Assembly (NCBI GenBank): GCA_019429005.1
Contig: JAHYJR010000004.1
Coordinates: forward strand, 77,700-141,260
DNA length: 63,561 bases
Source: Nanobdellati archaeon
GTDB lineage: Archaea; EX4484-52; GLR71
Reading direction: 5' to 3'
In this document: positions 14,601 to 31,009 of the stretch, piece by piece
How positions within the stretch are numbered: position 1 is the stretch's first letter
How the letters are laid out: every line of letters begins with the position of its first letter
The notes under the pieces: generated by a model
What the model saw: only the letters and a program-made list of their open reading frames with translations
Told to the model about the DNA's origin: nothing
Databases searched by the model: none
Program-made: the position numbers and the translations under genes

Positions 14601-16302
14601 AATGAGTTACATTAACCCTTAAAGTGTCAGAACCGCTTAAACCGTGTGGGTCTGTTGCAGTGAATGTGATGTCTTCAATACCAGTCCAAGATGGTGGTGC
14701 GCTCAAAATTAAAATATGTGTTGTTGGATTTATACTTACACCAACATTTGAATTGCCCGAATATGACCAAGTAAGCGTGCTTTTAGCATCAGTTGAGTCA
14801 AGTACATAATCATCAAGATCTATTGTTGAATCGCTAGTGCTCTGTACTAGGGTTTTATCTGGAAGATCCATTACAGACGGTGCAGTGTTAGTAACTAACA
14901 TTGTAAATTCAATATCTTTACTTTTATCTATAATTTCTACATTACCTGTTTTTGTATCATATGCAGACTTTGATGCTGTATAAGTATAAGTACCACTTTG
15001 GAAACCTGTAAGTGTTAATTGTCCGGATGAATCTGTTACACCTGTTTCTCCATCCATTGTTATAGAGACACCTATTAAACTTGAAGATTCTGTAAATGTC
15101 ACAGAATAAACCGGTTTAGGATCAACTGTTATAAACATAGACAGATAATTTGGTGTATTATCAAGACCTGAACATAATGTTGAATTTGCAAGACCTGTAA
15201 TTGAAATATTATAAGATCCAGCTGTTTCTGGAACCCAATTAAAACCATTATATTCTGCAGTAAAATTATCATTATTTGCATCAGCAAGATATGTTTGTAA
15301 TTCTACAAGAGTGCCACTCTCTTTTTTAATATCATAGGTTATCGCTGTTGGTATTGGTGTTAATACATAATTTGAATCATCATATTGATAATTATTAGCA
15401 TAATTAGAGATTTTTGAAAAATTAAATATCTGTTGAAATCCCACAATAGGGTATGGATTTACAATTGTAAGATCATTTAAAATAGTATAACATTCATTTC
15501 TTGGAAGTCGCGGTAACACGGAAAAAATATCTGTTGCACTTTGAGCGATACTATTTATACAAACATCATCAATTACGTTTGTAGTAATTGTTGCGGTATA
15601 TGTGCCATCTGTAGTTGGAGTCCATGTGAATTCAACATCTTGTGCTGTATCCATATATAATGGCGGTCCATCATCACCACTAGATTTTGTATAATATTTA
15701 TTAGATGTATACACTAAGGATGTTCCTTTCTTTATTTCAAGCTTAACATGTATATCTGAAGAATAATAATCATCTTTAAGGGAATCTGGTGTAAAACCTA
15801 CACCTGTATCTGCATCTTGAAATGCACTGTAAGTTGTTGCATCAAGACTTGATTGTGTGTTTATAACAATAGGTACTTCTGCATGTTCATCATTTGTTAC
15901 AGTAAATGAATCCACTGTCGATGAACAATCTGAAAGTTGATATAATGTTTTTGATATAGTTCCACTACATTGTGTTCCGCCACCAGAACATTGATTAAAC
16001 ACCTTATATTCTAAAGGAACTTGACCTGGACTTGTAAAAAATATAGCATACCCGAATGTAGTTGTAAGCTGTGCAGGGTATTTTATAATCAATTGTCCAT
16101 TTGTTGTTGAATAGGATGGTATGATTCCTGAAAAAGCATTATGATTAATACAACTAGCCTCTAGACAATCATATGCTAAGACATTTACATTATTTTGGTT
16201 AAATGTATAAGTAACATCTGCAGTAGCAGACACAAGACCTGAAAAACAATATAAAATACTTATAATTACAAATAATACTTTAGGAAATCTATTAAAACTC
16301 AT
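11638..16302 (-). CDS. large cell-surface protein with Ig/cadherin-like (tandem-95) repeats, FnIII and TSP3-like Ca-binding repeats
   Basis: signal peptide; repeated NTAP/NDAP...V.D.GG.T...F...V units; DxDxDG loops; C-terminal PTG + TM + basic tail. Confidence 0.8.
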   Translation of the reverse strand: MSFNRFPKVLFVIISILYCFSGLVSATADVTYTFNQNNVNVLAYDCLEASCINHNAFSGIIPSYSTTNGQLIIKYPAQLTTTFGYAIFFTSPGQVPLEYKVFNQCSGGGTQCSGTISKTLYQLSDCSSTVDSFTVTNDEHAEVPIVINTQSSLDATTYSAFQDADTGVGFTPDSLKDDYYSSDIHVKLEIKKGTSLVYTSNKYYTKSSGDDGPPLYMDTAQDVEFTWTPTTDGTYTATITTNVIDDVCINSIAQSATDIFSVLPRLPRNECYTILNDLTIVNPYPIVGFQQIFNFSKISNYANNYQYDDSNYVLTPIPTAITYDIKKESGTLVELQTYLADANNDNFTAEYNGFNWVPETAGSYNISITGLANSTLCSGLDNTPNYLSMFITVDPKPVYSVTFTESSSLIGVSITMDGETGVTDSSGQLTLTGFQSGTYTYTASKSAYDTKTGNVEIIDKSKDIEFTMLVTNTAPSVMDLPDKTLVQSTSDSTIDLDDYVLDSTDAKSTLTWSYSGNSNVGVSINPTTHILILSAPPSWTGIEDITFTATDPHGLSGSDTLRVNVTHLNTPPSISIIPNISTDEDIPKFDVFNLNSYVTDTETLDVNLIYTITGNTNTNVGFSIDSSKNIDIQPALNWFGFSTITIKVTDEGGLTASQSFIITVNPINDVPEITGVPSDFAVTQDTTYLFDLTAYKYDIEDSAATLIWTINNVNTYLYTASINASDILNITPKSGMIGSDVATLVLTDSGLLQATKDITINISALPNTAPSISGLPDVELDEDGFKENAFNLNTYANDTQTSNDNLRYSIIFTDLYVNVTIDSNNNIDVYPTEDWNGLSIVTIEVTDEGGLTDTDMFTVTVNSINDAPVATGVLPNLIIGESLSDSSIDLDNYFTDVDGDVLSYSSTTPSHATVYIDPFTNVVTFTALSGWIGDENITFIANDSILTASSTMTLTIIPLSATYPVINSITIDDSIVSPLETIHVTVNVTDDSGIFSVEAESVLLSNTIGNIWEGDIIANSAPGVYTINVTVVDTSSNVVTDISVSYSVILDSIIPFAPSNPVAIAIDNETIRLNWIFSMSDDVEKYNIYYSLFSGGQDFSVPNLVVSNATNLVNITGLNPLTKYFFVVEASDYVDNINRSIETSAITLATGQDIDPDGDGLPTGWENHYNQTGNILDPNNNDSDNNGILDGDEDPDNDGLTNYEEYLLGTNPNNPDSDNDGIPDGWEITYNMNPTDPKDATYDNDGDGLSNLYEYLENPYRTNPNLADSDGDGIDDGTEIANGSNPLDINSPTCHVGCGSSNGGSYSSGSWPRIDDDSNESNETLETQSVILLGFSSFKIPINVVVGDVITFSGCFVNTENLTDDNRVELYIDNIFVDVTDLDNDMCFELSYFGDLSVGLHESLILVSGTDFNETQMFIVYGGVTLEKIVTESVIIVNHQTELGVGISVDIAGFVDVMLFIDDELISKEKIYVMDKEIIYFNHTFDDVGNYNIAFIATLSKTSDKLATEILVINALPTGFSFSEHAEDVTNIILILLIIGVYIKRAALRAIFGV

Positions 16303-18369: not shown

Positions 18370-20253
18370 TTACATATTATCTACAACAGAAATACCAAGG
18401 ATATTAAGCATATTATCGAGAACAGTCTTTGAAGCTTCAACAAGAGCAATTCTTGTATTGACTTCAGCTTTTTCAGCTTTCAATACAGGTACATTGTTAT
18501 AGAATGAATTGAAAAGTGTAGCTACATTGAATGCATATGTTGCAGCAATAGTTGTATCTTTCATATAAGCTGATTTTTTGATTGTTTCTGGCATCTTTGC
18601 CATCTCAAAAATTAGCTGATGCTCTTCTTTTTTAACAAAGGGTACATCAAGATTAGATTTAATCTTTTTAACTCGTTTAAGTATACTTGAACATCGAACG
18701 GATGCATATTGAAGGTAAGGACCAGTATTTCCTTCAAAACTCAAAGCATCTTCCCACCTAAATGTAATCTTTTTAAAAGCAGATGTTTTCAAAAGAATAT
18801 ATCTTACTGCACCGATACCTATAGCTTCTGCAAGTTTAGTTTTTTCGGAATCAGATAAAACAGATTTATCCCGTTTCTCAATCTCAACAAGTGCACGTTT
18901 AGTTGCCTCGTCAAGAATATCATCAGTTGAAAAACCTACCCATGTACCCTTTCTGCCTGAAAATTTGCCTTCAGGTAACCAGACATGTTCATACGCAATA
19001 TGTATATAATTCTTGAAATGAGGATACCCTAACACTTTCAGTGCTATACGCACAGCTTCCTGCGGATATGCTTGTTCTGCACCTATAACATTTACAACAA
19101 TATCACCATGACCAAAATCAGATGACTTTTTACCATTGTTATTTGTTGTCCAGAGATCTTGTTTATTTGGTTGTTTCATTGTTTTTAGATATTTCAGATT
19201 TTTCTTTAAAAGACCAAACTTCCAAAGATGGAATGCTATATCTTTTCCAGTATAAGTTGCAGTACCATTTGACCTAAACAGTACCTTATCTGAAGAATAC
19301 ATACCTTCCATTGATTTCTCTTTGTCAAGCTTCAAAACTATACAATCCTTGTTTGGACCTTCTCTCTCTTTAATTACACTTTTTGATTCTAATAAAATAG
19401 TTGTTGCTTCTTCAAGAAGTTTTGACTGAACAATATCACTTTCCCATGTCAAAAGATTATAAAATATACCCATACGGAATGCGGTTTGTAATTGAGCAAA
19501 AACACATTTTTCAGTAAGATCCCTTGCAAGAACACTTGTCTTATTGCCACCCTCTTCCATATCTTTGATTATGGTTTCAATATCAGTCTCAAGAGACTTA
19601 TCAGCTTCAAGCTCCTTGTTAATTTCAACATACCGTAACCCGGTCCAATGATCAAACTTCAGATTTTTATCATTTAAAGACTTAAATTTAATATTGTCAA
19701 GAACACTTATTGCAACCTGACGTCCAAGGTCATCAATATAATTTTGAACCTCAACATCATATCCTGCAGCCCTCATAATTCTTGCTAAAGTATCACCCAG
19801 AACAGCATTTCTTGCATGACCAAAATGCCATGGTTTGTTTGGATTAACTGATGTATGTTCAATTATAACTTTTGTTTTCTTACTAGTTTTTATTGAACCA
19901 TATTCATTTCCACGCTTAGAAATATCTTTGATAACAGCTTTTGAAAAGTTATCAAAATTTATAAAAATATTTATATACCCGTTACCTGCGACTTCAATGC
20001 CTTTTATGAAACTATCTTTATCAAATACAATATTATTAGATATAGTATTGGCTATCTCTCTTGGAGCTTTCTTAAGCTTTTTTGCTAAGTCAAAACAGAT
20101 TGTGCAAGCATAAGAACCAAATGCGTAATCAGGTGTCTCTTCGATTGAATCTTTTATTATGGTTTCCGAAATATCATTGATATCCAGTTTCTTTAGACTT
20201 TCATGGATTGTACTTACAATCTGTTTTTTAAGAATCATAAGTGGATATACCAT
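18370..20253 (-). CDS. argS: arginine--tRNA ligase
   Basis: EHTSVNPNKPWHFGHARN HIGH region, FSGRKG, FEGNTGPYLQYA.VR. Confidence 0.97.
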   Translation of the reverse strand: MVYPLMILKKQIVSTIHESLKKLDINDISETIIKDSIEETPDYAFGSYACTICFDLAKKLKKAPREIANTISNNIVFDKDSFIKGIEVAGNGYINIFINFDNFSKAVIKDISKRGNEYGSIKTSKKTKVIIEHTSVNPNKPWHFGHARNAVLGDTLARIMRAAGYDVEVQNYIDDLGRQVAISVLDNIKFKSLNDKNLKFDHWTGLRYVEINKELEADKSLETDIETIIKDMEEGGNKTSVLARDLTEKCVFAQLQTAFRMGIFYNLLTWESDIVQSKLLEEATTILLESKSVIKEREGPNKDCIVLKLDKEKSMEGMYSSDKVLFRSNGTATYTGKDIAFHLWKFGLLKKNLKYLKTMKQPNKQDLWTTNNNGKKSSDFGHGDIVVNVIGAEQAYPQEAVRIALKVLGYPHFKNYIHIAYEHVWLPEGKFSGRKGTWVGFSTDDILDEATKRALVEIEKRDKSVLSDSEKTKLAEAIGIGAVRYILLKTSAFKKITFRWEDALSFEGNTGPYLQYASVRCSSILKRVKKIKSNLDVPFVKKEEHQLIFEMAKMPETIKKSAYMKDTTIAATYAFNVATLFNSFYNNVPVLKAEKAEVNTRIALVEASKTVLDNMLNILGISVVDNM

Positions 20254-20451
20254 AAAATCACATAATATTTAAAAATAGGGTTTATAACATTACTTTTATT
20301 TACCTTGAAGATTTATAAGTTTATTAGGGGGTGGGGTTGTTTGAGATGTCTATTTTTCAGGGGTTGTATTTTTAGTATTTAGATAAAAAATATACTAGCA
20401 ATTGAATAATACCGTATAAAATGCCAAAATAACAGTATTATAGGGATAACA

Positions 20452-20476
20452 TTCTGTATAATAACTTGTTATCTGT
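20452..20476 (+). other. attI-like recombination site at the head of the cassette array
   Basis: GTATAAT-aactt-GTTATCTGT (L-like box, 5-bp spacer, core). The core 20468-20476 is the exact reverse complement of ACAGATAAC in the first attC-like site; no long hairpin. Confidence 0.6.
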
Positions 20477-20549
20477 AATTCAGAAATCAGCCTTAGAATT
20501 TTCGAAGAGGGGCAAATCTTATAAAGTAACAAGTTTATCTAATTTTATT

Positions 20550-21401
20550 ATGAAAGCAACCCAACTATACCAACACCTTGAGAAAGATTTTATCACTCCA
20601 GAAATGAATGATGGATGGGCGCAGTATATGGATTCTGTTGCTGATTTTCTTAGTGAGAACTTTAAGAAAAGATCTATGGGATTAGTTTGCGATTTTGCAA
20701 CAGAAATCAATAAAATATATACTGCTGTTTTTCCATCAAGAGAAGTTATGCAAAGAATTTTAGATGATGGAACTCAAGATGCAATGCTTTTTGTTCATCA
20801 CCCATCGATATGGGATATAAGAAAAGCTCCAGAAGTTTTTCAGCAAATGGACAGAGATTTATTACAACAATTTAGAGATAGAAAAATCTCTATTTATAAC
20901 CTTCATGTGCCTTTAGATAATTTTGGAGAATATTCAACAAGTGTAACTTTAGCAAAAGCATTAGGGATAAAACCTGAAAAATCTTTTGCTCCTTACTTTG
21001 GCTCTATGTGTGGAGTTTTTGGAAAAACTGATGTGGTAACAGTTCAAGATTTAAGAAAAAGATTCCAAGATGCTGTTGGACACGAAGTTAATTTGTATAA
21101 TTATGGAGATAATGAAATCAAAGATAGAACTGTTGCTGTTATTGCTGGTGGCGGAAACGATGCAGATATGCTTGAAGAAATCGCCAAAGCAGGAGTTAAT
21201 ACTTTTGTAACTGGAATTACTGTTAAAAATGATCACTCCAAAAAGGCACATGATTTTGCTGAAAAACATAGAATAAATGTCCTTGGCGGAACTCATTATT
21301 CTACTGAAAGATTTGCTTGTATATCGATGGTTGATTATTTTAAGAAAGTTGGGTTACCTTCTGAGTTTATTGAAGATAAACCTGTAATGGAAGATATGTA
21401 A
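20550..21401 (+). CDS. NIF3/YbgI-like dinuclear metal protein (cassette 1)
   Basis: LFVHHP, HVPLD, AVIAGGG, FVTG, GTHYSTE; TATA-like CTTATAAA about 25 bp upstream of ATG 20550. Confidence 0.85.
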   Translation: MKATQLYQHLEKDFITPEMNDGWAQYMDSVADFLSENFKKRSMGLVCDFATEINKIYTAVFPSREVMQRILDDGTQDAMLFVHHPSIWDIRKAPEVFQQMDRDLLQQFRDRKISIYNLHVPLDNFGEYSTSVTLAKALGIKPEKSFAPYFGSMCGVFGKTDVVTVQDLRKRFQDAVGHEVNLYNYGDNEIKDRTVAVIAGGGNDADMLEEIAKAGVNTFVTGITVKNDHSKKAHDFAEKHRINVLGGTHYSTERFACISMVDYFKKVGLPSEFIEDKPVMEDM

Positions 21402-21520
21402 GATTTGCCCCTTTAATTCTTTTATTTTATGTATCGCTTCGCTCTTGGACGGCTGATTTCTGAACTCAAAATCCTTCGGATTTTGCCACGCTGCGCTCTC
21501 CTCTTTTCAGTCGTCGGGAC

Positions 21521-21612
21521 AGATAACAGGGCTTAAACGGAAAATGCCTCAGCTCGGCATTTTCCCAAATTTCTCCCTGCGGTCGCAACTTCGTTTAAGC
21601 CCAATGTTATAC
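21521..21612 (+). repeat. attC-like site 1
   Basis: AGATAACA-GGGCTTAAACG ... CGTTTAAGCCC-AA-TGTTATAC imperfect inverted repeat, 92 bp. Confidence 0.8.
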
Positions 21613-21837
21613 GCAATTAAATTTTCACTAGTCTAAATCTCATTTTTCTTTTAAAAAAAGAAACAAAAGAGAGGGAGTCCAGGTGCTACGCACATATTGC
21701 CTTTTACTTCGTAAAAGAAATCTATTAAGAGGGGGCTTTTAAGATAGTCTTTTTCTACGAAAAAGAAATTTTTCGGAATAGCTTTAGAAAACTTATTAAA
21801 TGTGAACCTTTTTATACTTAATATGGGAAGTTTAATT

Positions 21838-23199
21838 ATGGGTGAAATAAAAGAGGGATCTGCTTTTGGTAATTTTAATCTAAATGGTTCAAATGGTGAT
21901 TTATATAAATTATTAAATAAATTAGGAAGATTACCTGAAAATTTTGATGAAAAACCATTATTAAATCTTCTTAATCATCAAAGTGACAAAGTAAGATTTT
22001 TGGTTGTAAAAAATCTAGCAAAATTATCAAAATTTTCTTTAATTGAAACCTATATCAATCTAATTAATAATGATGAAAGTTCAACAGTTAGAAGAGAAGC
22101 GGCATCAGCAATAGGTAGACTAAGAAATTCAAATGCTAAACAAACAATGTTTAATTTACTTAATGATAATGATCCTGAAGTAGTTTTACAATCAATTAGA
22201 GGGTTACTTGTTTTTAAGAAAGATGAAGATGTTAAAAATAAGTTATTTAGTCTAAAAGAACACCCTAATGAAATAATCCAAGAAGTAGTAAAAAAAGAAT
22301 TCAAATTAAATAATAATCCTATAAGCAAAGATGAAGATCATACAAAATCTCCCAATTTTATGAAAAATGCAGTAATTCAAGGAGATGTTAGAGAAACACT
22401 TAAACTTGTTCCAGATGAATCAGTTCATTTAACTTTTACTTCTCCGCCTTATTATAATGCAAGAGATTATTCAACATATAAAAGTTATCAAGAATACTTA
22501 GATTTTTTAGAATCTGTTTTTAAGGAAGTTCATAGGGTTACTAAAGAGGGGAGATTTTTCTTGTTAAATACTTCCCCTATAATTATTCCAAGGGTGGGTA
22601 GACAATATTCTAGTAAAAGATATCCAATCCCTTATGATATCCACCCACTTTTAATAAAAATGGGTTGGGAATTTATTGATGATATTGTATGGGCAAAACC
22701 TGAGGCAAGTGCAAAAAATAGAAATGCTGGTTTTCTCCAACACAGAAAACCATTAGGATATAAACCAAATGCTTGTAGTGAATGTGTTATGGTTTATAGA
22801 AAAAAAACGGATAAACTAATTGATTGGAATATAAAACAATATGATAAAAAAATTGTAGAAGAGAGTAAAATAAAAGGAGATTATGAATCTTCAAATATAT
22901 GGAATATTGATCCTACATTTGATAAAACACATAGTGCTGTTTTCCCAATCGAACTATGCAATAAAGTTATTAAATTTTATTCATTTAAAGGAGATTTAGT
23001 TTTTGATCCATTCGCCGGAAGCGGAACTTTTGGCAAATCGGCTATAAATTTAAACAGATTTTTTTTCTTAACCGAACAAAAGAAACAATATGTAGACAGA
23101 ATAAAAGAAAATATGAGTCAAAGTAAAATATTTTCAGATAATAATTTAAAACCAAAATTTTTAAACATAAACGAATTTGAAAAGGTAATAAAAAAATGA
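21838..23199 (+). CDS. HEAT-repeat-fused beta-class DNA methyltransferase (N4-C, M.CfrBI-like)
   Basis: N-terminal VR..AA.A.G.L HEAT repeats; TSPPYY, HSAVFP, DPFAGSGT; TATA-like element supports ATG 21838. Confidence 0.88.
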   Translation: MGEIKEGSAFGNFNLNGSNGDLYKLLNKLGRLPENFDEKPLLNLLNHQSDKVRFLVVKNLAKLSKFSLIETYINLINNDESSTVRREAASAIGRLRNSNAKQTMFNLLNDNDPEVVLQSIRGLLVFKKDEDVKNKLFSLKEHPNEIIQEVVKKEFKLNNNPISKDEDHTKSPNFMKNAVIQGDVRETLKLVPDESVHLTFTSPPYYNARDYSTYKSYQEYLDFLESVFKEVHRVTKEGRFFLLNTSPIIIPRVGRQYSSKRYPIPYDIHPLLIKMGWEFIDDIVWAKPEASAKNRNAGFLQHRKPLGYKPNACSECVMVYRKKTDKLIDWNIKQYDKKIVEESKIKGDYESSNIWNIDPTFDKTHSAVFPIELCNKVIKFYSFKGDLVFDPFAGSGTFGKSAINLNRFFFLTEQKKQYVDRIKENMSQSKIFSDNNLKPKFLNINEFEKVIKK

Positions 23200-24119
23200 C
23201 AATAACATTAACTGAAGCAGTAGCAAAAAATATCATTACTAAATTGATAAATGGAGAAGATTATAGAATAGAAATAGTTACACTAATTAATGCCGAATTT
23301 TTACAGTATACTGTTGATTTCTTTAAAAAAATTGTAGAAGCAAAACTAAGAAACAAAGACATAACTGTTGATTGGTACAAAAAAGAATTTTTAGATGAAA
23401 ATCTTACATCAGAAGAAATAGCAATAAATTCAGGTTTAAACAAGAAAACTATATCAAATATGTATAATTCTGCAACTAAAGAGATTGTAATTGAAGCCTC
23501 AAAAGAACACTATGAAGAACTATATCAAGCCATACAAACTTTAGTAGATGGAGAAAATGAACTTAACATAACGCTCACTTTAAAATTTAAAGGAGTTAGT
23601 GTTGATTTAAATGTTAGTGAAAGTTTGATTGTAATAAATACTTTAGCTGTAAAACGAGCAGCATTAAGAGGCGGACTATGGAGTACCGCGGGTAAAAGAG
23701 TTGAAAAACCTTTAATGCAAACTCTATGTAAAATTTATAATGTTAGTGATGAGAATTACAAGGTTAAAATAAAAAGTAAAATCAAAGGTAAAGTTGATTT
23801 TGTAAGAGAAATCGATTTCTATTTAGTTAATAACGGACAAAACCACAAATGCGAAGTTAAACTAATGGGCAAAGGAAACCCTGAAAGTGCAGACGCAGTA
23901 ATAGCAAGGGATAGTAAGGTTTTTGTTGCCGATAAACTTTCCGATACAAATAAAAAACAATTAGACAGCCTTAAAGTTGAATGGGTTGAAATGCGAGATC
24001 ATGATGGATACAAGAGGTTTAAAAAAATCCTTGAAAACTTAAAAATACCTCATACAGATTTTAATGGAAATATTAACGAAAAATTAAAAGAAATTTACAG
24101 TGAATTATTTGAACAATAA
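23196..24119 (+). CDS. type II restriction endonuclease, CfrBI family
   Basis: GEDYR.EI..LI, RGGLWSTAGK.VEKPLM, REIDF, CEVKLMGKGNPES; ATGA overlap with the MTase. Confidence 0.8.
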   Translation: MTITLTEAVAKNIITKLINGEDYRIEIVTLINAEFLQYTVDFFKKIVEAKLRNKDITVDWYKKEFLDENLTSEEIAINSGLNKKTISNMYNSATKEIVIEASKEHYEELYQAIQTLVDGENELNITLTLKFKGVSVDLNVSESLIVINTLAVKRAALRGGLWSTAGKRVEKPLMQTLCKIYNVSDENYKVKIKSKIKGKVDFVREIDFYLVNNGQNHKCEVKLMGKGNPESADAVIARDSKVFVADKLSDTNKKQLDSLKVEWVEMRDHDGYKRFKKILENLKIPHTDFNGNINEKLKEIYSELFEQ

Positions 24120-24265
24120 AAGCCCCTCTATTTTCTTTTTTTAGAAAAAAGAAACAAAAAATCTGGACTCCCCCTCGTCCTTCGGACATATTGGCTCCTT
24201 TCAGTCGATATTTATTAACGTGAAAATTTAACTGAGCCTTCGGCTTTTTTTCTTGCAGAAAAAAC

Positions 24266-24351
24266 GTATAACAAGGATTTAGAGATTCCGCCTTGCAGGC
24301 TCCATCCAAATTTTTGCTTCGCAAAAACTTCTCTAAATCCTGATGTTAGTT
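24266..24351 (+). repeat. attC-like site 2
   Basis: GTATAACA-AGGATTTAGAGA ... TCTCTAAATCCT-GA-TGTTAGTT, 86 bp. Confidence 0.8.
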
Positions 24352-24462
24352 GCAATTTAGTTTAAGTTTAAAATGTTCTTTTAAAAAAAGAAGCAAAAGG
24401 GGGGAATTCCGTCCTTCGGACATATACACTCCCTACGGTCGATATTTATGTGGGCAAGAAAA

Positions 24463-25785
24463 CTAACCTAAGATAATCTTTTCTACTTCTAACTTTGCTT
24501 TTTCTAATTCTTCTTTTGTTTCTTTCTGCAATGTTTCTGCTTTTTGCATTCTTTTTTTAACTTCGTCAGCAATTTTATTCTGAACAGAAAGAGGGGGCAG
24601 AGGGATTTTTAATTTTGATAAATCTCTTGAATAAACATGAGGTTGTCCTGCTCCTTGTTGCATATTATAAACAAATTTCTGTTTTGCTTTCATAACCCAA
24701 AACAAGTAAAAAGTAGAAACATCTTTCTCGTCTAAAGATTTAATTACTGTACAATCAGAAGCGAAAATAGGATAATTGTGAAACCATACATAACCAGAAT
24801 AAGCACCAGATGCACTTACAGTTATTATATTTCCCTTATAGTTATATTTATCTATTGAATATGGACTTGATTGACCTCCTGCAATTACGGGATACTCTCC
24901 AGAAGTAATATTTTCTTTAGTAATGCTTTGACCTTTTGTTAAACTTGAAACTTCACCTAAAGTTTTTTCTTTAAATTTTTCAGAACTTGGCGTATCTTGA
25001 GGATGTGCAAAACTTATAGGGTCAATTCTGCCAATTTCAACTTCTTCAAAATTAATCGTAAAGCACATTTTATCTTCTGATTTATGAAGTTTTATTCCTA
25101 ATTCATCAAGAATATAATCGTTTATTGAATCAATAAGTTTCCGGGCTTCTGTTTCTTTATAATTTTTTGAGGAGTAAGCATTATCCATTAAAGAAACTAT
25201 TTTATTTTGAATTTCTAAAGATGGCATAGGAATTTCGATTTCTTTTAATTCTTTTACAGAAACAATATTCCTAATAGCAGAGCCATAAGCAAATTCATTC
25301 CCTTCAATTAATTTTTCGATTATATATCTAAATATCACTAAGAAATATTTAAGATTAATATTTTCGTTCAATCTAATTCTTAATAATGCTTGATTAATTA
25401 CACCTTTACGAAATTTTTCAGGAATAATAACCAATTTACCGATAGTTCCTGAACAACTCATAAGAATATCATTTTTTTGAACAGAGAAAGATTTTAATCT
25501 TTGAAAATCCCCATCAGAAATAAAATATCTTGCCCTATTTGGATTATTTTTTATCGCATTATATTGTTCATAAACTTGATAATTTTCAGGTCTATCATCT
25601 ACAAATATCTCTTTTTTTATTGAACCCCCGAAAGGCCCTCTTTTTAATTGAGCAATTTCTCCAAATTTAACTACCTTAAATTTTTTAAAATTTAAAAAAT
25701 CATCAGAACAATTCAATCTTTTATAATTACTTTCTACATCAAATCTTCCTTGTGTTTCTTCAATCAAAACTGTAAAGCATTCCAT
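24463..25785 (-). CDS. hsdS: type I-like R-M specificity (S) subunit
   Basis: two TRDs, each followed by IP.P.L..QNKI helices; GPFGG, DILMSCSGTIGK. Confidence 0.88.
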   Translation of the reverse strand: MECFTVLIEETQGRFDVESNYKRLNCSDDFLNFKKFKVVKFGEIAQLKRGPFGGSIKKEIFVDDRPENYQVYEQYNAIKNNPNRARYFISDGDFQRLKSFSVQKNDILMSCSGTIGKLVIIPEKFRKGVINQALLRIRLNENINLKYFLVIFRYIIEKLIEGNEFAYGSAIRNIVSVKELKEIEIPMPSLEIQNKIVSLMDNAYSSKNYKETEARKLIDSINDYILDELGIKLHKSEDKMCFTINFEEVEIGRIDPISFAHPQDTPSSEKFKEKTLGEVSSLTKGQSITKENITSGEYPVIAGGQSSPYSIDKYNYKGNIITVSASGAYSGYVWFHNYPIFASDCTVIKSLDEKDVSTFYLFWVMKAKQKFVYNMQQGAGQPHVYSRDLSKLKIPLPPLSVQNKIADEVKKRMQKAETLQKETKEELEKAKLEVEKIILG

Positions 25786-25787
25786 CT

Positions 25788-27599
25788 TTAACAGCCCTCG
25801 TAAGATGTTGGTTTTTTCTCAAACTTTCTATACTCGAGCAAAATTTTATCTAAATCGTTTATTGGGTCTTTTCTTCCTGTCGCATCATAACCAATATGTT
25901 TCGCAATCGCCATAAAAATAGGATAATTGCCTAATCTCTCGTCTTTCTTTTTCTTACGAACAAATACTAAAGATGATTTTACTCCTGCTCCAAAATGGCT
26001 AAATGCTATTTGAGGAAGTGAAACAACTGCTTCTATTTGTGCGTGTTCCATTAAGAAATCTCTAACATATTGCAAAGAACTATTTGTTAAAATTCCGTCA
26101 GGCAAAACTATTCCCATTTTACCACTGCCACTTTTCAGAAATTCTAAACATCTCTCAATAAATAAAATTTCTGTTTTTTGATTTTTACGATTTTCTCCGA
26201 GTTTGTATTTTCCTAAATAATCGTGTTCTGTTGATTTAACACTTGCCCCAAATGGTGGATTAGTTAAAATAATATCAAATTTATTTTTCCCAAAACCTTG
26301 ATGAATCTCTGAAATTTCATTCACATTTCTTAAAGAATCTGTTGAAATAACATTTGTATGCCCATCATCATGAATAATCATATTCATTTTACAAACTCTT
26401 GCGATTTGATCATTTATCTCAATTCCATAAAGTTTGTCTTTCGCAAAATCGTGCCACATTCTAAAATTTTCTTCTGGACTATCAGGAAATTCTTTATCTG
26501 CTAATTCTCTAACATAATCCATAGCATTAAGCAAAAATCCACCACTACCACAAGCAGGGTCTAAAACAAGTTTATCTTCTTCTGGCTTTAACATTTTTAC
26601 AGCAAATTGAATAACTTCACGAGGAGTAAAAAACTGCCCCATTTTTCCTTTAAAGAAATCTTCCATAAAACGCTCAAAAGCAACGCCTTTTGTATCTAAA
26701 TCTGTTTTATTAAAATTAATACTCTGTAAATGTTCAACCACACCATAAACAACTTTTGGATTTAATTTTATATCTTCTTTAAAGACTTCTGCATCTTTTG
26801 TTTTCGCATATTGATATATTTGATCCACTCTCTTAAAAACTTCCTCTGGCGTTTCATGAGTTCCAATCTGAAATTTATATGGCTCTCCTTTTTTGGTTAC
26901 AGTTCTTTCTTTTTCTTCTTGTAATTTACAAAAAAGTAATTTTGATACTTCATCAAAAGCAGCAGTTGGGCTTAATTTCCCACCTTGCCAAATAGTATCA
27001 TGTGCTTTATCTAAAACTCTAATCAAATCATCACGAGAAACAAGTTTTAAATCTTTATCCGGGTCGCCCTTGATAAATTTATATTTTGGTGCTTGTCCGT
27101 ATCGCTCTGGAATATCTGCAATAACATTTTTTTCTCTTTCTCTTTGTGTAAATCCAGAAACATCAAAAGCAGTTCGTGTAGTTCCTGCAACAACAATCGC
27201 ATATTTCGCTCTCTTGCTGTTTGCGTTTCCAAACGCTTGTTCTATTGCTTGTTTAAATTCTGCGTCTGTAATTCCATCTTTTTTACATTCAACAATCAAA
27301 TAATCTTTTCCATCTTTATCATAAACAACAATATCGGCTCTATCGTCAGGTATTCGTCGCTCAACTTTTACTTCAATATCAATATTTTCTTTAGGGTATT
27401 TTTTATCCAAAACTAACTCAACAAAATAAGAAGCCCTTACTTTTTCTTCTGGATTTGTAAATGTTGTAGAATACTCACGCTTACAAAAATAAGTTATTCT
27501 CTTTTTATCATCAGAAAGTTTAATGATTTTTTCTTTAAGCCCTCGATCAACATTTTCCATGAAAATAGTATTATTATCAATATTATTATCTTCACTCAT
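25788..27599 (-). CDS. fused HSDR_N-like endonuclease / N6-adenine methyltransferase (type IIB/IIG-like R-M subunit)
   Basis: PEEKVR, RADIVVY...IVECKK (PD-(D/E)xK), GQFFTPR, LDPACGSGGFL, TNPPFG. Confidence 0.88.
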   Translation of the reverse strand: MSEDNNIDNNTIFMENVDRGLKEKIIKLSDDKKRITYFCKREYSTTFTNPEEKVRASYFVELVLDKKYPKENIDIEVKVERRIPDDRADIVVYDKDGKDYLIVECKKDGITDAEFKQAIEQAFGNANSKRAKYAIVVAGTTRTAFDVSGFTQREREKNVIADIPERYGQAPKYKFIKGDPDKDLKLVSRDDLIRVLDKAHDTIWQGGKLSPTAAFDEVSKLLFCKLQEEKERTVTKKGEPYKFQIGTHETPEEVFKRVDQIYQYAKTKDAEVFKEDIKLNPKVVYGVVEHLQSINFNKTDLDTKGVAFERFMEDFFKGKMGQFFTPREVIQFAVKMLKPEEDKLVLDPACGSGGFLLNAMDYVRELADKEFPDSPEENFRMWHDFAKDKLYGIEINDQIARVCKMNMIIHDDGHTNVISTDSLRNVNEISEIHQGFGKNKFDIILTNPPFGASVKSTEHDYLGKYKLGENRKNQKTEILFIERCLEFLKSGSGKMGIVLPDGILTNSSLQYVRDFLMEHAQIEAVVSLPQIAFSHFGAGVKSSLVFVRKKKKDERLGNYPIFMAIAKHIGYDATGRKDPINDLDKILLEYRKFEKKPTSYEGC

Positions 27600-27739
27600 T
27601 TTCTCGCCCCCTTTTTCATCTGTTCTTCCATCATAATTTCTACTTGGCGAGAAACTAATAAACCTTTCTTCTTGCAGAAATCTCTATATTTATCATAAAT
27701 TTTTGAATCAACACGCAAAGTTATATTTTTTGAATCCAT
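27596..27739 (-). CDS. 47-aa ribbon-helix-helix regulator (not in the ORF track)
   Basis: MDSKNITLRVDSKIYDKYRDFCKKKGLLVSRQVEIMMEEQMKKGARK; alternating N-terminal strand plus two helices; ATGA overlap with the MTase. Confidence 0.75.
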   Translation of the reverse strand: MDSKNITLRVDSKIYDKYRDFCKKKGLLVSRQVEIMMEEQMKKGARK

Positions 27740-27740
27740 T

Positions 27741-28655
27741 TTAACCCCTATTAATTTTTTCGTAACTATTTTTAATAAGTGACATCACAAGAGGCAGTTC
27801 TTCTATTTTTGAGATGGTTACTTCATAATCCAATGCTCCCCAATGTCCAATCTTTGAAACATCTCTTACAATATCATTATTCAAATCATTTTTTGATAAG
27901 TTAAGATATAATTTTATTTTTTGCTTTTTGAAAACAAAATACGCAAAATTTATATTACTTTTAAAAGCGATATATTGCTTTTTTGGAAGAATCTCAATAT
28001 TATCATCAATTGCTAAAATCTGATTTTTTAATTCGTCATATAATGATTTTGTTTCATCTGAAGAATTATTTAAATGGTCTTCTTCAGTATAAACCTTTAC
28101 TTCACTACTTACTTTTTGAACAACACTACTTTTTTTACTGATTTTGTTTATTGATTCAGAATTTTCATGTGACCTTAATCTTGTATATTGAATTAAATCG
28201 TTTTCATATTTTGATATTTCCCATAATTCAATAGGTAAATCCTTAAAATTTATTGCTTGTTGTTGATATTTTGAAAAAGCAGGAGAAACAAATAAAACTC
28301 TTGATTGCGACCAATCAACATTTTCTCTTTTCAAATTCCTATCGCAATTCTCATTATATTCCAAAATAAAATCTGCTTTGTTATTAAGCATTAAAGAAAG
28401 ATAAGCATAACCTTGATCTATTACACTAAAATTTTTATCTCGCTTATATTCAATAATCACAAAACTATTATTTTCATTATCGTAAGCAAGAGTATCTATT
28501 CTTAGTCCATTTAAAGAAAATTCTGATTTAACTATTTGTAATCCAAATATATCGTTTAAGTTTTTCTCTGTTAAATCTTGAATTTCTTTTTCCAACTTAA
28601 AAGATAATTGTTTAATTCTGTTGAGTTTATTAGTTGAGTTTTTGAAGATTGCCAT
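27741..28655 (-). CDS. NucS-like PD-(D/E)xK nuclease with C-terminal DUF5655 domain
   Basis: LEKEIQ, RIDTLAYD...IIEYK, Q...Y; C-terminal K.YIAFK...RDVS.IGHWG..D.E. Confidence 0.8.
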   Translation of the reverse strand: MAIFKNSTNKLNRIKQLSFKLEKEIQDLTEKNLNDIFGLQIVKSEFSLNGLRIDTLAYDNENNSFVIIEYKRDKNFSVIDQGYAYLSLMLNNKADFILEYNENCDRNLKRENVDWSQSRVLFVSPAFSKYQQQAINFKDLPIELWEISKYENDLIQYTRLRSHENSESINKISKKSSVVQKVSSEVKVYTEEDHLNNSSDETKSLYDELKNQILAIDDNIEILPKKQYIAFKSNINFAYFVFKKQKIKLYLNLSKNDLNNDIVRDVSKIGHWGALDYEVTISKIEELPLVMSLIKNSYEKINRG

Positions 28656-28873
28656 CTTACTAATACAAATGAAATCAAATATTTATAAATGTATCGCTAA
28701 AACCGTTTTCTTGCCCTAATGTTCTTTTAGAAAAAGAACTAAAAGCCCCCCTCTCGTCCTTCGGACATATACACTCGCTACGCTCGAAATTTATCTGAAC
28801 CTAAATACAACTCTTCGGGATTTTTTCACTTCGTGAAAAATCGTTGCACTATCCCTCGGTCACTTCGTGACGC

Positions 28874-28962
28874 AACTAACAGGGCTTAAAGGGTTCGCTC
28901 GTTGCACTTCGCTCTCTCAAATTTTTTGCTACGCAAAAAACGTCCCTTGCCCGATGTTAAGT
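28874..28962 (+). repeat. attC-like site 3
   Basis: AACTAACA-GGGC(TTA)AAGGG ... CCCTT-GCCC-GA-TGTTAAGT, 89 bp; right arm lacks 3 nt. Confidence 0.75.
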
Positions 28963-29014
28963 GCAATAATTTTTAGGGGCTCATAATACTAGATGTGGGC
29001 TTTGGATTATTTAT

Positions 29015-29605
29015 TTACTCTATGTAAAAATTCTGTTTATTTAGAAGATTAAAAGGAAGCTCTGGACGATTTTCAGATTTGAAATATTCTTTCATATATA
29101 ATTTAATTAATTCCTCTTTTGAGATACCATAAATTTCTTCAGTTATTTTTCCCTCAATAATTCTTCTTTGTTCTTCCTCCCTACCAAGAACAATTACAGT
29201 ATTTCCTGAACCAGATCCCTTTTTATATATATTTTCCTTTGCTTGTTCTAGCGTACAATTTTTTACATCAAATATATATGTCACTGAAAGAGGTCCAGAA
29301 TCCCAACTAAAATTAAATTCCCACAAGTCAAAAAATATTTTTTTTTCATTAGTATTTTTATCTTCATCAGACCATAAAAATGAAATAAAATACTTTTTAT
29401 CTTCTAGACTTGATAGCTTCATTCTTCCTGCCGGTCCCGCAGACTCAGTAGTTATTATTGAATAAAGATTTTTTATTGAAGCAGAATCATATCTAGATAA
29501 AACGGTTTTATTATTATCACCCATTACAGTTTCAATTCCTTCTTTAGGATATACAATTAATCCTGTATTTCTAAATTTTATTAATTCTGGATTAAAAAAT
29601 GACAT
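29015..29605 (-). CDS. hypothetical protein (cassette 4)
   Basis: ORF with own TTTATAAA box about 25 bp upstream of ATG 29605. Confidence 0.65.
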   Translation of the reverse strand: MSFFNPELIKFRNTGLIVYPKEGIETVMGDNNKTVLSRYDSASIKNLYSIITTESAGPAGRMKLSSLEDKKYFISFLWSDEDKNTNEKKIFFDLWEFNFSWDSGPLSVTYIFDVKNCTLEQAKENIYKKGSGSGNTVIVLGREEEQRRIIEGKITEEIYGISKEELIKLYMKEYFKSENRPELPFNLLNKQNFYIE

Positions 29606-29740
29606 TATATTATTATACAACAAGCTCTTTATAAATTTTCTGATTTTGACTACACTATTTAGTAGTTATTCTATTATTCTAGCACCAAAGCCCCAGAAGT
29701 TTTTTATATGTGTCGCTATGCTCCCTACCACCCCTAAAAA

Positions 29741-29814
29741 TAACTGAGCCTTCGGCTTTTTTTCTTGCAGAAAAAACACATAACAAGTGCTTTTAAAGTT
29801 TCGCTACACTTCAC
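29741..29814 (+). repeat. truncated attC-like site 4 with its 37-bp leader
   Basis: 29741-29777 is identical to 24229-24265, then ACATAACAAG...; the right arm is missing. Confidence 0.65.
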
Positions 29815-30402
29815 CTAGCTTTTCTTAATGATTTTCTTTAATTCACGTCTAAATCTTTGTGCTCTTTCCAGAGATGTTTTTGCTTTTGATTGGACTAATA
29901 CGTCACCCATATTATAAGTAAAAGTTCCTCTTTTCTTCTTTTCAAAGAAATAGTCTTCCATTAATTCATCGGCTTTCAGTTTTCCAAGAAGTTCAGCAGC
30001 ATCTTCTTTTGCTTCAATAAAATCATCTAATAATTCCCTCTGCAATTTTCCTGTCAGATAAAAATAATAGATTATTGAATCAAAAGTTACAGCATGAATT
30101 GAAAGGTCTGTTTTTATCTTAATACCACCATTTTCCAATAAGGCCCTTGCCATATAAAACATGCTATAATAACTAGCATTTACGACCCAAAGCAATCCAT
30201 TGAAACTTGTAAAACCAAGATATTGCTGTTTGTCTTGGTTGGTTGACAATTCAAATAATGCTTTTGCAGAATCAATTGAATCATCTGCATTTTTAAGATA
30301 AAAATCTATGTGTTCTGGTTTTTCCTTTGTTTTTATTATACCCTCACTTATGAATTGCTTCATTCGATTTTCTGCTTCTTTTAGCTTTTTTTCTTGTAAC
30401 AT
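29815..30402 (-). CDS. HEPN domain protein
   Basis: YYSMFYMARALL...H...R..FTY pattern; coupled to an MNT gene. Confidence 0.8.
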   Translation of the reverse strand: MLQEKKLKEAENRMKQFISEGIIKTKEKPEHIDFYLKNADDSIDSAKALFELSTNQDKQQYLGFTSFNGLLWVVNASYYSMFYMARALLENGGIKIKTDLSIHAVTFDSIIYYFYLTGKLQRELLDDFIEAKEDAAELLGKLKADELMEDYFFEKKKRGTFTYNMGDVLVQSKAKTSLERAQRFRRELKKIIKKS

Positions 30403-30403
30403 C

Positions 30404-31009
30404 TTATAATCGCCCCCGTTGAATTAATCTATAAAATAATTCAGCCCCATATAAAATTATATGTTTGTTTAATATTTCATTCATCACATTCTTTTCATCA
30501 CGTTTAGTAAGCATACTATAAACACTCTCAAATCCAATAACGTGCTCTTCAAAAGGCAAATCATAATTTGATGCAATATTATGAATGAATTTTTCATGAA
30601 ATTCTATTTTATCTGTACTATCCACAATCAACAGGATATCAATGTCTCGCGGTGTATCAGATTCAACTGTTGAACCAAATACAAGCAAAATAAAACTAGC
30701 TTCCTTGATTTTATTTATGATTTCTTCCATAAATAAATCAAGATCTTTGAACGTACCTTTACTTAATAAATCATCCCTTCTTGAATATTCAGCAAAAGCA
30801 AGAGTCTCATGATGGATTTTATAGTTTAGACTAAGATTCTTATGTTTATCTTGTTGAATAATATCATTTTCTATTAATGGCTGTATTGCCCTATGTGTAA
30901 GAGAGACATGCATATTTAATCTTCTTGCGACTTCTCTCAAAGTAAATGATTCGGTGATATGCCCGACAAATATTTGCAATACTTTTAGTGTTGATTTATT
31001 AAGATACAT
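30404..31009 (-). CDS. HTH + minimal nucleotidyltransferase (MNT antitoxin)
   Basis: N-terminal wHTH (TLREVARRL); LLVFGS...RDIDILL. Confidence 0.85.
   Translation of the reverse strand: MYLNKSTLKVLQIFVGHITESFTLREVARRLNMHVSLTHRAIQPLIENDIIQQDKHKNLSLNYKIHHETLAFAEYSRRDDLLSKGTFKDLDLFMEEIINKIKEASFILLVFGSTVESDTPRDIDILLIVDSTDKIEFHEKFIHNIASNYDLPFEEHVIGFESVYSMLTKRDEKNVMNEILNKHIILYGAELFYRLIQRGRL

Follow-up and report, generated by a model that had tools for sequence, protein, structure and literature searches.

The stretch of DNA analysed here, hereafter the window, comprises 63,561 nucleotides (nt) of a Nanobdellati archaeon (assembly GCA_019429005.1, contig JAHYJR010000004.1, positions 77,700 to 141,260 of the forward strand). 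It contains an array of gene cassettes separated by folded sites of attC type. The opening junction of the array lies about 160 nt from the start (20253) of argS, and housekeeping genes including RNase HII and tRNA-Met follow the array. As these neighbours lie with it inside a contig of 141 kb, the array is chromosomal. We read the locus as a chromosomal integron-type cassette array without integrase (cluster of attC sites lacking integron integrase, CALIN), with a probability of about 0.8. The components are given below; R' and R'' are the GTT-side and AAC-side cores, X and X' the two halves of an outer stem, and M a module lying between X' and R''. Open reading frames are abbreviated ORF and methyltransferases MTase.

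18370-20253, minus: argS
20416-20476, plus: attI-like junction, a degenerate short hairpin, then ...AATAACTT|GTTATCTGT; cassette 1 joins at G20468
20469-21606, plus: cassette 1, 1.14 kb; cores 20468 GTTATCTGT / 21519 ACAGATAAC, complementarity 9/9; R' 20468-20476, R'' 21519-21527; X 20479-20492, X' 21451-21464, M 21465-21518; attC-type hairpin 21523-21610
20550-21401, plus: NIF3/DUF34 gene (cassette 1)
21607-24345, plus: cassette 2, 2.74 kb; cores 21606 GTTATACG / 24265 CGTATAAC, complementarity 8/8; R'' 24264-24272; X 21617-21628, X' 24220-24231, M 24232-24263; attC-type hairpin 24268-24349
21802-23199, plus: HEAT and N6/N4 type II DNA methyltransferase (Pfam PF01555; PADLOC MTase_II, 1.2e-89; cassette 2)
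23196-24119, plus: CfrBI-like type II restriction enzyme (Pfam PF09516; PADLOC REase_II, 1.1e-109; cassette 2)
24346-28956, plus: cassette 3, 4.61 kb; cores 24345 GTTAGTTGC / 28872 GCAACTAAC, complementarity 9/9; R'' 28872-28880; M 28807-28871; attC-type hairpin 28876-28960
24463-25785, minus: S subunit (cassette 3)
25788-27599, minus: HsdR_N nuclease and N6 MTase, MAD2-like (cassette 3)
27596-27739, minus: ribbon-helix-helix (RHH)-like ORF of 47 aa, between the PDC-S18 and MTase genes (cassette 3)
27741-28655, minus: PDC-S18/DUF5655 gene (cassette 3)
28957-29817, plus: cassette 4, about 0.83-0.86 kb; cores 28956 GTTAAGTG / 29777 CACATAAC, complementarity 7/8; R'' 29776-29784; X 28969-28979, X' 29731-29741, M 29742-29775; truncated site from 29781 to about 29817, without L' and without GTTA
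29015-29623, minus: ORF of 202 aa (cassette 4)
29818-31118, plus: cassette 5, a fossil whose own 5' flank and 3' site are both gone
29815-30402, minus: HEPN-like ORF of 195 aa, weak HEPN match (cassette 5)
30404-31057, minus: winged-helix / PDC-M05A-like ORF of 217 aa (cassette 5)

Cross-cassette pairing of the site cores

In all four cassettes with cores (4/4), the bases that follow GTT are the reverse complement of those preceding the next AAC, so that the GTT-side core opening a cassette pairs with the AAC-side core closing the same cassette. This is the arrangement claimed by the preliminary description, all eight core strings of which were found in place. Since GTTA and TAAC are fixed by the site type, only the four or five distal bases of a core are informative. 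Non-cognate pairs rarely match, so the three perfect pairs and the near-perfect one go far beyond chance.

The attC sites of integrons are imperfect palindromes of 57-141 nt with the order R''(..AAC)-L''-variable tip-L'-R'(GTT..), whose structure is conserved above their sequence. The three full sites of the window (21523-21610, 24268-24349 and 28876-28960) are imperfect palindromes of 82-88 nt with the form xTAAC-A-stem...stem-RAT-GTTAx. Folded as single-stranded DNA, they reached z-scores of -2.2 to -4.2 against shuffles; their TAAC and GTTA ends are invariant and, as set out below, all 11 pairs of their L stem covary. The fourth site, starting at 29777, retains its R'' core and only about 35 nt without a closing GTTA, and the fold of 29770-29850 was no better than that of shuffles. 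Consequently, of the four co-oriented TAAC...GTTA sites previously proposed, three are complete and the last is truncated, while the sequence at 20452-20476 is of a different type, namely an attI-like junction. That the distal bases of R' come from the next cassette, another property of attC sites, was found in 4/4 cassettes of the window and in 31 of 46 consecutive pairs overall, in agreement with the earlier proposal of an integron-like array.

In a crude regular-expression scan of the genome for TAAC-stem-GTTA, stems paired at 10/10 were limited to the array's own sites, and blastn of a site with its flanks against plasmids gave no match. A CALIN is defined as two or more attC sites that are spaced by less than 4 kb and lack a neighbouring integrase. 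Here, the full site at 24268 lies 2.7 kb past the one at 21523 and 4.6 kb ahead of the one at 28876, which is followed at 0.9 kb by the truncated site (29777); this leaves one pair of full sites below the 4-kb limit and one above it.

These features can be accommodated by a mechanism in which each cassette would have been inserted as a circle by a tyrosine recombinase cutting the G|TT of a folded site, the exact position of the cut being inferred. Such an insertion implies that the bases after GTT pair with those preceding the AAC with which that cassette ends, and the rule observed is the one expected.

The site family in related genomes

The three full sites served to build a covariance model, R1. 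Searched against the genome of the window, it recovered these three and no others, the next match having E = 1.3, and no flank modules were found elsewhere in that genome. The search was extended to a set of 61 genomes (own genome, family, order and some other archaea), 35 of which gave R1 matches (E <= 0.1), many of them forming co-oriented arrays on one contig. Sixteen array loci of relatives were re-searched together with the window and yielded 65 R1 matches, one of which is the reverse reading of a palindromic window site. Cores were then compared by taking the six bases after the GTT of one site and the reverse complement of the six before the AAC of the following site, giving 46 consecutive pairs (two from the window and 44 from 15 loci of relatives). 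All six bases agreed in 18 of these pairs and at least five in 31. The corresponding numbers were 102 and 444 (11%) for 3986 non-cognate ordered pairs, and 3 and 12 for the two cores of one and the same site (n = 64). The cross-cassette core rule is a property of the whole site family.

In the alignment of matches, which had been fitted to R1, all 11 pairs of the L stem were changed on both sides (11/11), and 90.5% of the cells were paired, compared with 70.7% after shuffling and 34-45% when the partner was slid; TAAC and GTTA were nearly invariant. A DNA search with the array in 42 genomes of the order matched only the non-coding modules and the small RHH gene; the restriction-modification (R-M) genes gave no match.

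The complementarity between the two ends of a cassette extends beyond the cores. When the 3' flank of a window cassette is joined to its own 5' flank, one long branched fold results. With the 9-nt core excluded, the two ends were more complementary than 95% of the non-cognate controls in 32 of 46 cassettes, a number that includes 31 of the 44 from relatives. The 5' layout reads GTT-N6-AA-X; X measures 13-19 nt and, in 22 of the 25 best cases, has its first base at position 11 past GTT. The 3' layout reads X'-M-N6-AAC, where M consists of 30-62 nt of small hairpins and ends on the top strand with CTCTTC or CTCAA. Stems reaching the gene ends are minimum free energy (MFE) folds of joined flanks, and only the X stem was treated as general; in cassette 2, X was read directly from inverted repeat I14, as the automated search had chosen a palindrome. 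Constrained MFE folds of 64 sites predicted a one-sided bulge of 2-4 nt right after the R stem in 33, and no conserved extrahelical bases deeper in the stem were seen in them.

The 64 site regions contain 132 triloop hairpins with stems of 4 bp or more. Among these, GNA loops were found 87 times on the bottom strand and five times on the top strand, closed by C-G (55) or T-A (30) pairs. Genome-wide, GNA triloops are symmetric between the strands (447 and 435 of 8080). As d(GNA) loops are reported to form very stable DNA mini-hairpins (PMC3201870, PMC13037366), this bias is indirect evidence suggesting a DNA fold of the bottom strand, comparable to that of bacterial attC sites. The closed circle would rebuild one long branched hairpin on the bottom (minus) strand. 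Its parts would be the X/X' outer stem, the module M (30-60 nt, carrying mini-hairpins), the R stem (N5-6 TAAC / GTTA N5-6), a bulge on one side only, the L stem of about 11 bp, whose pairs covary, and a variable tip.

Both ends of the array could be interpreted by comparison with relatives (G, C, L and f are our handles for genomes, contigs, loci and families). On the left, positions 20416-20483 align with the sequence directly 3' of recombinase genes of a group called clade B below, in two genomes of the same family (L093 in G003 and L083 in G002). This argues that the array opens at a genuine attI-like junction that is devoid of its gene, the window having no recombinase gene there. Beside clade-B genes, the junction is conserved as a short hairpin followed by TT|GTTA N5 AA. 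On the right, 29818-31118 shares 89% nucleotide identity over about 1300 nt with G032:C16:412-1711, a copy enclosed by two R1 sites, the GTT of one lying 141 nt ahead of it and the next cassette-end AAC 126 nt behind it. As this homologue is inside a cassette, a fifth cassette exists in the window, and a remnant of a flank module was found in it at 31068-31103 (direct repeat D8). A deletion has taken the inner half of site 4 together with the 5' flank of cassette 5, whose 3' site has decayed. G032 belongs to a family (f6) different from that of the window genome; 89% nucleotide identity across families, against 36-39% protein identity for ArgS within the window's own family, argues for a horizontal movement of cassette 5.

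In two relatives (L037 in G027:C50 and L038 in G041:C78), the first unit past the junction is a gene-less 'empty cassette' of about 200 nt adjoining the recombinase gene, which reads GTT core, AA, X, short loop, X', M, AAC core (R'') and site. In the tentative reading given at the end, new cassettes might form by the insertion of genes into the loop of an element of this kind.

Metagenomic data were also considered. Each sequencing run contained at most 11% of the words of 20200-30100; four runs were examined as contigs, their uncovered parts being left unused. Bins of sites plus flanks had by far the highest summed depth, indicating a family of high copy number in samples of marine, sediment, mat and lake origin. 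Two contigs from two runs carry a cassette-1-like sequence (about 97% identity), the match of which begins at 20467, one base before the G, with 37 and 6 unmatched letters ahead of it; we count this start at the core as evidence of mobility. In a marine contig, a copy of cassette 3 (about 96% identity) jumps from 27749 to 28662 and lacks the PDC-S18 gene. This copy (25774-28770) also differs upstream of 25774, in the S subunit, so that gene content varies within a cassette. Joints that might have been taken for excision, e.g. from 24368 to 28717, were rejected because their sides are 21-45 nt within flank repeats.

The high copy number of flanks and sites in several metagenomes could also be expected from non-mobile structured repeats (of the repetitive extragenic palindrome type, terminators or RNA elements) or from the ends of HUH single-strand transposons, the core matches then being by-products. 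The TAAC-type short motifs beside hairpins are reminiscent of IS200/IS605 ends. However, static repeats explain neither why the GTT-distal core matches the next site instead of its own, nor the occurrence of a cassette at 89% identity inside arrays of two families. Pfam scans of 30 ORFs (window 5032-40801) revealed no transposase, an Rfam scan of the window found one tRNA only and no family for the array sites, and the loop bias fits GNA triloops of DNA, not UUCG tetraloops of RNA. We regard this explanation as extremely improbable.

Recombinases beside the arrays

On array contigs of relatives, tyrosine recombinases of 267-286 aa were found. Four of them were scanned against NCBIfam and all scored best as archaeal XerA (NF040815), three with 250-258 bits for a cut-off of 220 and the G032 enzyme below it with 202 bits; membership by XerA score says nothing about the substrate. 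Against the integron-integrase model, the same four enzymes reached 177-221 bits (cut-off 265) in two stretches. The TIGR02249 cut-off was passed in none of the 61 genomes, every match being split near model positions 180 and 237, in a search that included no positive control above the cut-off (14 control genomes, none with an integron). A search with TIGR02249 at E <= 1e-40 in the same 42 genomes of the phylum gave no match, and neither did its controls, which makes it uninformative. At the structural level, the G027 and G003 enzymes each align in one stretch to solved XerA structures, and one array enzyme aligns in a single stretch to XerA (4a8e) and in two to IntI4 (2a3v), 58 residues of which are replaced by 16. 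The split model matches and the replacement of 58 residues by 16 indicate that the IntI-specific insert is absent.

With 40 further recombinase loci, 47 recombinase ORFs were collected, and a tree was built from 44 after exclusion of three divergent rows (L107, L108). Two clades were obtained, each with support 97/98. Clade A, with 20 rows, agrees with taxonomy and resembles the resident XerA. Clade B, with 24 rows, departs from taxonomy, rows of family f1 being nested among those of f6, and forms a separate, horizontally moving group of Xer-type enzymes. Both clades co-occur in G002, G003, G013 and G016. On contig G002:C25 (48.5 kb; L083, L102, L125), a clade-B recombinase with its junction at about 2.5-3.6 kb, RNase HII at 17.3 kb and a clade-A XerA at 21.1-21.9 kb are found. 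A C-terminal SPLD motif, considered as a link between clade B and IntI, was dropped because it occurs in both clades.

Association with the sites was found in clade B. All seven recombinases with a site within 3 kb (7/7) belong to this clade, as do two of the three with a site at 3-9 kb. The junction motif [AT]TGTT[AC]N5AA was sought up to 150 nt from the gene and in the orientation expected; it occurs at 13 of 24 clade-B loci and at 1 of 20 clade-A loci, and three more clade-B loci have 0-54 nt of flank. Two geometries were observed: in one, gene and array diverge and the junction precedes the gene start by 42-84 nt; in the other, the gene is co-oriented with the array and the junction is 10-64 nt past its stop. 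Contigs of relatives often end 0-450 nt from clade-B genes, several of them exactly within the junction motif; such ends fit assembly breaks at a repeated array, and adjacency is therefore undercounted.

From this adjacency, we consider it somewhat more probable than not that the clade-B Xer-type enzymes are the cassette recombinases of the relatives. In the mechanism proposed above, the enzyme would be a clade-B recombinase without the IntI insert, encoded beside a hairpin-type attI-like junction, and the window genome would have kept the junction and the cassettes but lost the gene. The gene could also lie in an assembly gap, the genome being 93.6% complete. Because it is absent, the array is probably frozen unless an enzyme is supplied in trans.

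Two other assignments of the enzyme can be weighed against the same data. The array could be that of an ordinary integron whose canonical IntI, with its insert, is absent from fragmented metagenome-assembled genomes (MAGs) or carried by other elements of the community, the Xer genes being bystanders or insertion targets. According to the accessible text of PMC9668308, six IntIs of archaea possess the insert, and archaeal attCs are recombined by bacterial IntI1; contigs of MAGs frequently break at arrays, and many of those with a recombinase stop less than 450 nt from the gene; and the IntI search had the limited controls mentioned above. Yet no full-length IntI-type match was obtained in 61 genomes, although 35 have sites, and neither the junction motif at fixed distances from clade-B genes nor the confinement of the nearest recombinases to one clade would be expected of bystanders. 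We therefore hold a hidden canonical IntI to be unlikely.

Still less likely, in our opinion, is that the units exploit the housekeeping dimer resolvase XerA at a dif-like site, stacking in the manner of integrative mobile elements exploiting Xer (IMEX) with no dedicated cassette system. Single-strand IMEX integration of the CTX phage type also uses an Xer recombinase and a folded single strand that mimics a duplex core site, so that these systems resemble the present one in the type and length of the enzyme and in the folded strand. The XerA scores of the adjacent enzymes (three of four above the NF040815 cut-off) and the one-stretch alignments of the G027 and G003 enzymes to XerA structures are in line with this possibility. 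However, it is clade A that is probably XerA proper, and this clade accounts for 0/7 adjacent sites and for a single locus with the junction motif. Several genomes carry both paralogous clades, the sites are hairpins of 80-90 nt, not 28-bp duplexes of dif type, and the window array is beside argS with no Xer gene. The present system thus differs from XerA, XerCD and IMEX by its dedicated paralogue clade, its many-cassette arrays and its sites of 80-90 nt plus flanks, which are not at dif.

Several observations weigh against the reading of the locus as an integron-type array, or against clade B as its enzyme. Fifteen of the 46 consecutive pairs break the core rule, possibly because of missed sites or decay, and the alignment giving the covariation figures was not independent of R1. 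The outer stem X of cassette 3 is weak (score 15, under the control threshold). Some metagenome records share the 3' flank of cassette 1 up to R'' and then diverge; modules may recombine in ways outside a simple integron model. Neither a circle junction nor an empty site or a rearranged order was seen in the metagenome contigs of the four runs. The window genome gave no PF00589 or TIGR02249 match, i.e. no tyrosine recombinase was found in it, and it is the sole genome of its genus in the set, so that it offers no close relative for a comparison of the locus. As for clade B, the IntI-defining domain is missing from all enzymes of the relatives, whose role is inferred only from adjacency. The chance of finding 7/7 in a clade of 24/44 is about 0.01, a figure to be read with caution since the rows are kin and the label 'adjacent' was set post hoc. 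Finally, most clade-B rows without a visible site are at contig ends, where adjacency is not readable. The qualifier 'reshufflable' given to the array by the preliminary description was not borne out in this genome: no tyrosine recombinase was found in its 93.6%-complete assembly, the last site is truncated, cassette 5 lacks both ends, and no circle or excision joint was found.

Cargo, host and relation to known integrons

The cassettes had been called multi-gene and partly reverse-oriented, which proved correct, the genes of cassettes 3, 4 and 5 being on the minus strand. These three are directed away from the junction and so depend on promoters of their own. The initial list of cassettes had to be amended: cassette 3 is an operon of four genes instead of three, cassette 4 measures about 0.83 kb and ends in a truncated site, and the decayed fifth cassette, reaching 31118, had been overlooked. 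The small RHH ORF of cassette 3, the stop of which overlaps the MTase start (ATGA), has counterparts with 76-82% nucleotide identity in G013:C1, G035:C17 and G040:C156, and adjoins a cassette flank in G013:C1; it may encode a controller protein of the R-M operon. The 202-aa ORF of cassette 4 had no match in Pfam, NCBIfam or PADLOC. The assumption of an anti-virus cargo is supported for cassettes 2 and 3, which encode R-M or candidate defence systems. Clear defence is therefore limited to two of five cassettes, cassette 1 being NIF3-like and cassette 4 of unknown content. Such cargo, which the preliminary description took for possibly new, has precedents: R-M proteins make up 8.3% of the annotated archaeal cassette proteins in the accessible text of PMC9668308.

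The host assembly has 1.08 Mb in 15 contigs with about 30% G+C. The description of the host as DPANN-like was fair, given this size and composition and the names of its best relatives. In a search across other DPANN phyla, the closest named relatives of ArgS were MAGs of Aenigmarchaeota and Nanohalarchaeota (34-38% identity), and the recombinase relatives bear names such as DPANN group, Aenigmarchaeota or Nanoarchaeota archaeon. A giant ORF of 3708 aa (50531-61657, minus) and a 1554-aa protein with Big_9, TSP3 and fn3 repeats (11638-16302, minus) are probably surface proteins, as often found in DPANN genomes. Beyond the array, an exact 30-nt direct repeat (31324-31353 and 31390-31419, 66 nt apart) was found within an unknown ORF of 256 aa (31264-32034). 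The stretch 35068-36060 comprises a 156-aa epimerase-like ORF that matches no more than the first half of the Pfam model; the next 500 nt or so have no listed ORF of at least 90 aa and contain a direct repeat of about 30 nt present twice. The stretch looks like decayed genes.

The likeness to bacterial sedentary chromosomal integrons, such as the Vibrio superintegron, includes the R''-L''-tip-L'-R' palindromes, the AAC and GTT ends, the G|TT crossover with the distal core from the next cassette, a presumed bottom-strand folding, sites that are more alike within a lineage, and the presence of defence and toxin-antitoxin (TA) genes in bacterial cargo. In contrast with bacterial integrons, the associated enzymes lack the IntI-specific insert and the attI-like site is itself a hairpin; in contrast with bacterial attC sites, in which extrahelical bases and an unpaired central spacer set the choice of strand, the MFE folds predict no conserved extrahelical bases but a one-sided bulge of 2-4 nt in 33 of 64 sites, and the site is extended by an outer stem X and a module M.

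Archaeal integrons have been reported from 75 MAGs of nine phyla, mostly as CALINs, with attCs in Aenigmatarchaeota and Nanoarchaeota and six archaeal IntIs that all carry the specific domain (Ghaly et al. 2022, PMC9668308). As the accessible text of that report includes CALINs with R-M cargo, the kind of array described here is known, and its site type, which the preliminary description took for possibly new, may already be catalogued there. The common features are tandem cassettes, folded attC-type sites, the usual lack of an integrase and frequent R-M and TA cargo. Compared with what that text describes, the differences reside in the cassettes (up to 4.6 kb with four genes and 3/5 reversed, versus short co-oriented ORFs), in the enzymes adjoining the arrays of relatives (Xer-type without the domain, versus IntIs with it) and in the outer stem and module M beyond the attC core. 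Literature searches, which included the accessible text of PMC9668308 and PMC8371274 but not their supplementary lists, revealed no description of DPANN arrays of integron-like type that are linked to Xer-type enzymes. The Xer-type link without the IntI domain (with no canonical IntI in 61 genomes), the hairpin-type junction and the X and M parts of the site thus look new.

Taken jointly, the data raise the possibility, which we put forward tentatively, of a distinct class of DPANN integrons. Such a class would be defined by an Xer-type integrase without the IntI domain, either never acquired or lost, a hairpin attI, a three-part site (cassette-specific outer stem, GNA mini-hairpin module and attC core) and cassettes born from 'empty cassettes'. 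Integron integrases have a specific domain for the single-strand pathway (PMC4792948), which is held necessary for folded attC sites (PMC9668308, citing Messier and Roy); an Xer-type link without this domain would therefore matter. If the link is functional, the origin of the integron from Xer recombinases and the minimal machinery of structure-specific recombination become testable, and finders that require the IntI domain undercount complete archaeal integrons. If the distinct-class reading is true, these systems are either surviving relatives of the step from Xer to IntI or a case in which the same machine was reached independently. As for the host, the array is a means by which a symbiont-type genome of 1 Mb gains R-M and candidate defence operons as ready-made modules, one of them shared with a genome of another family at 89% nucleotide identity.

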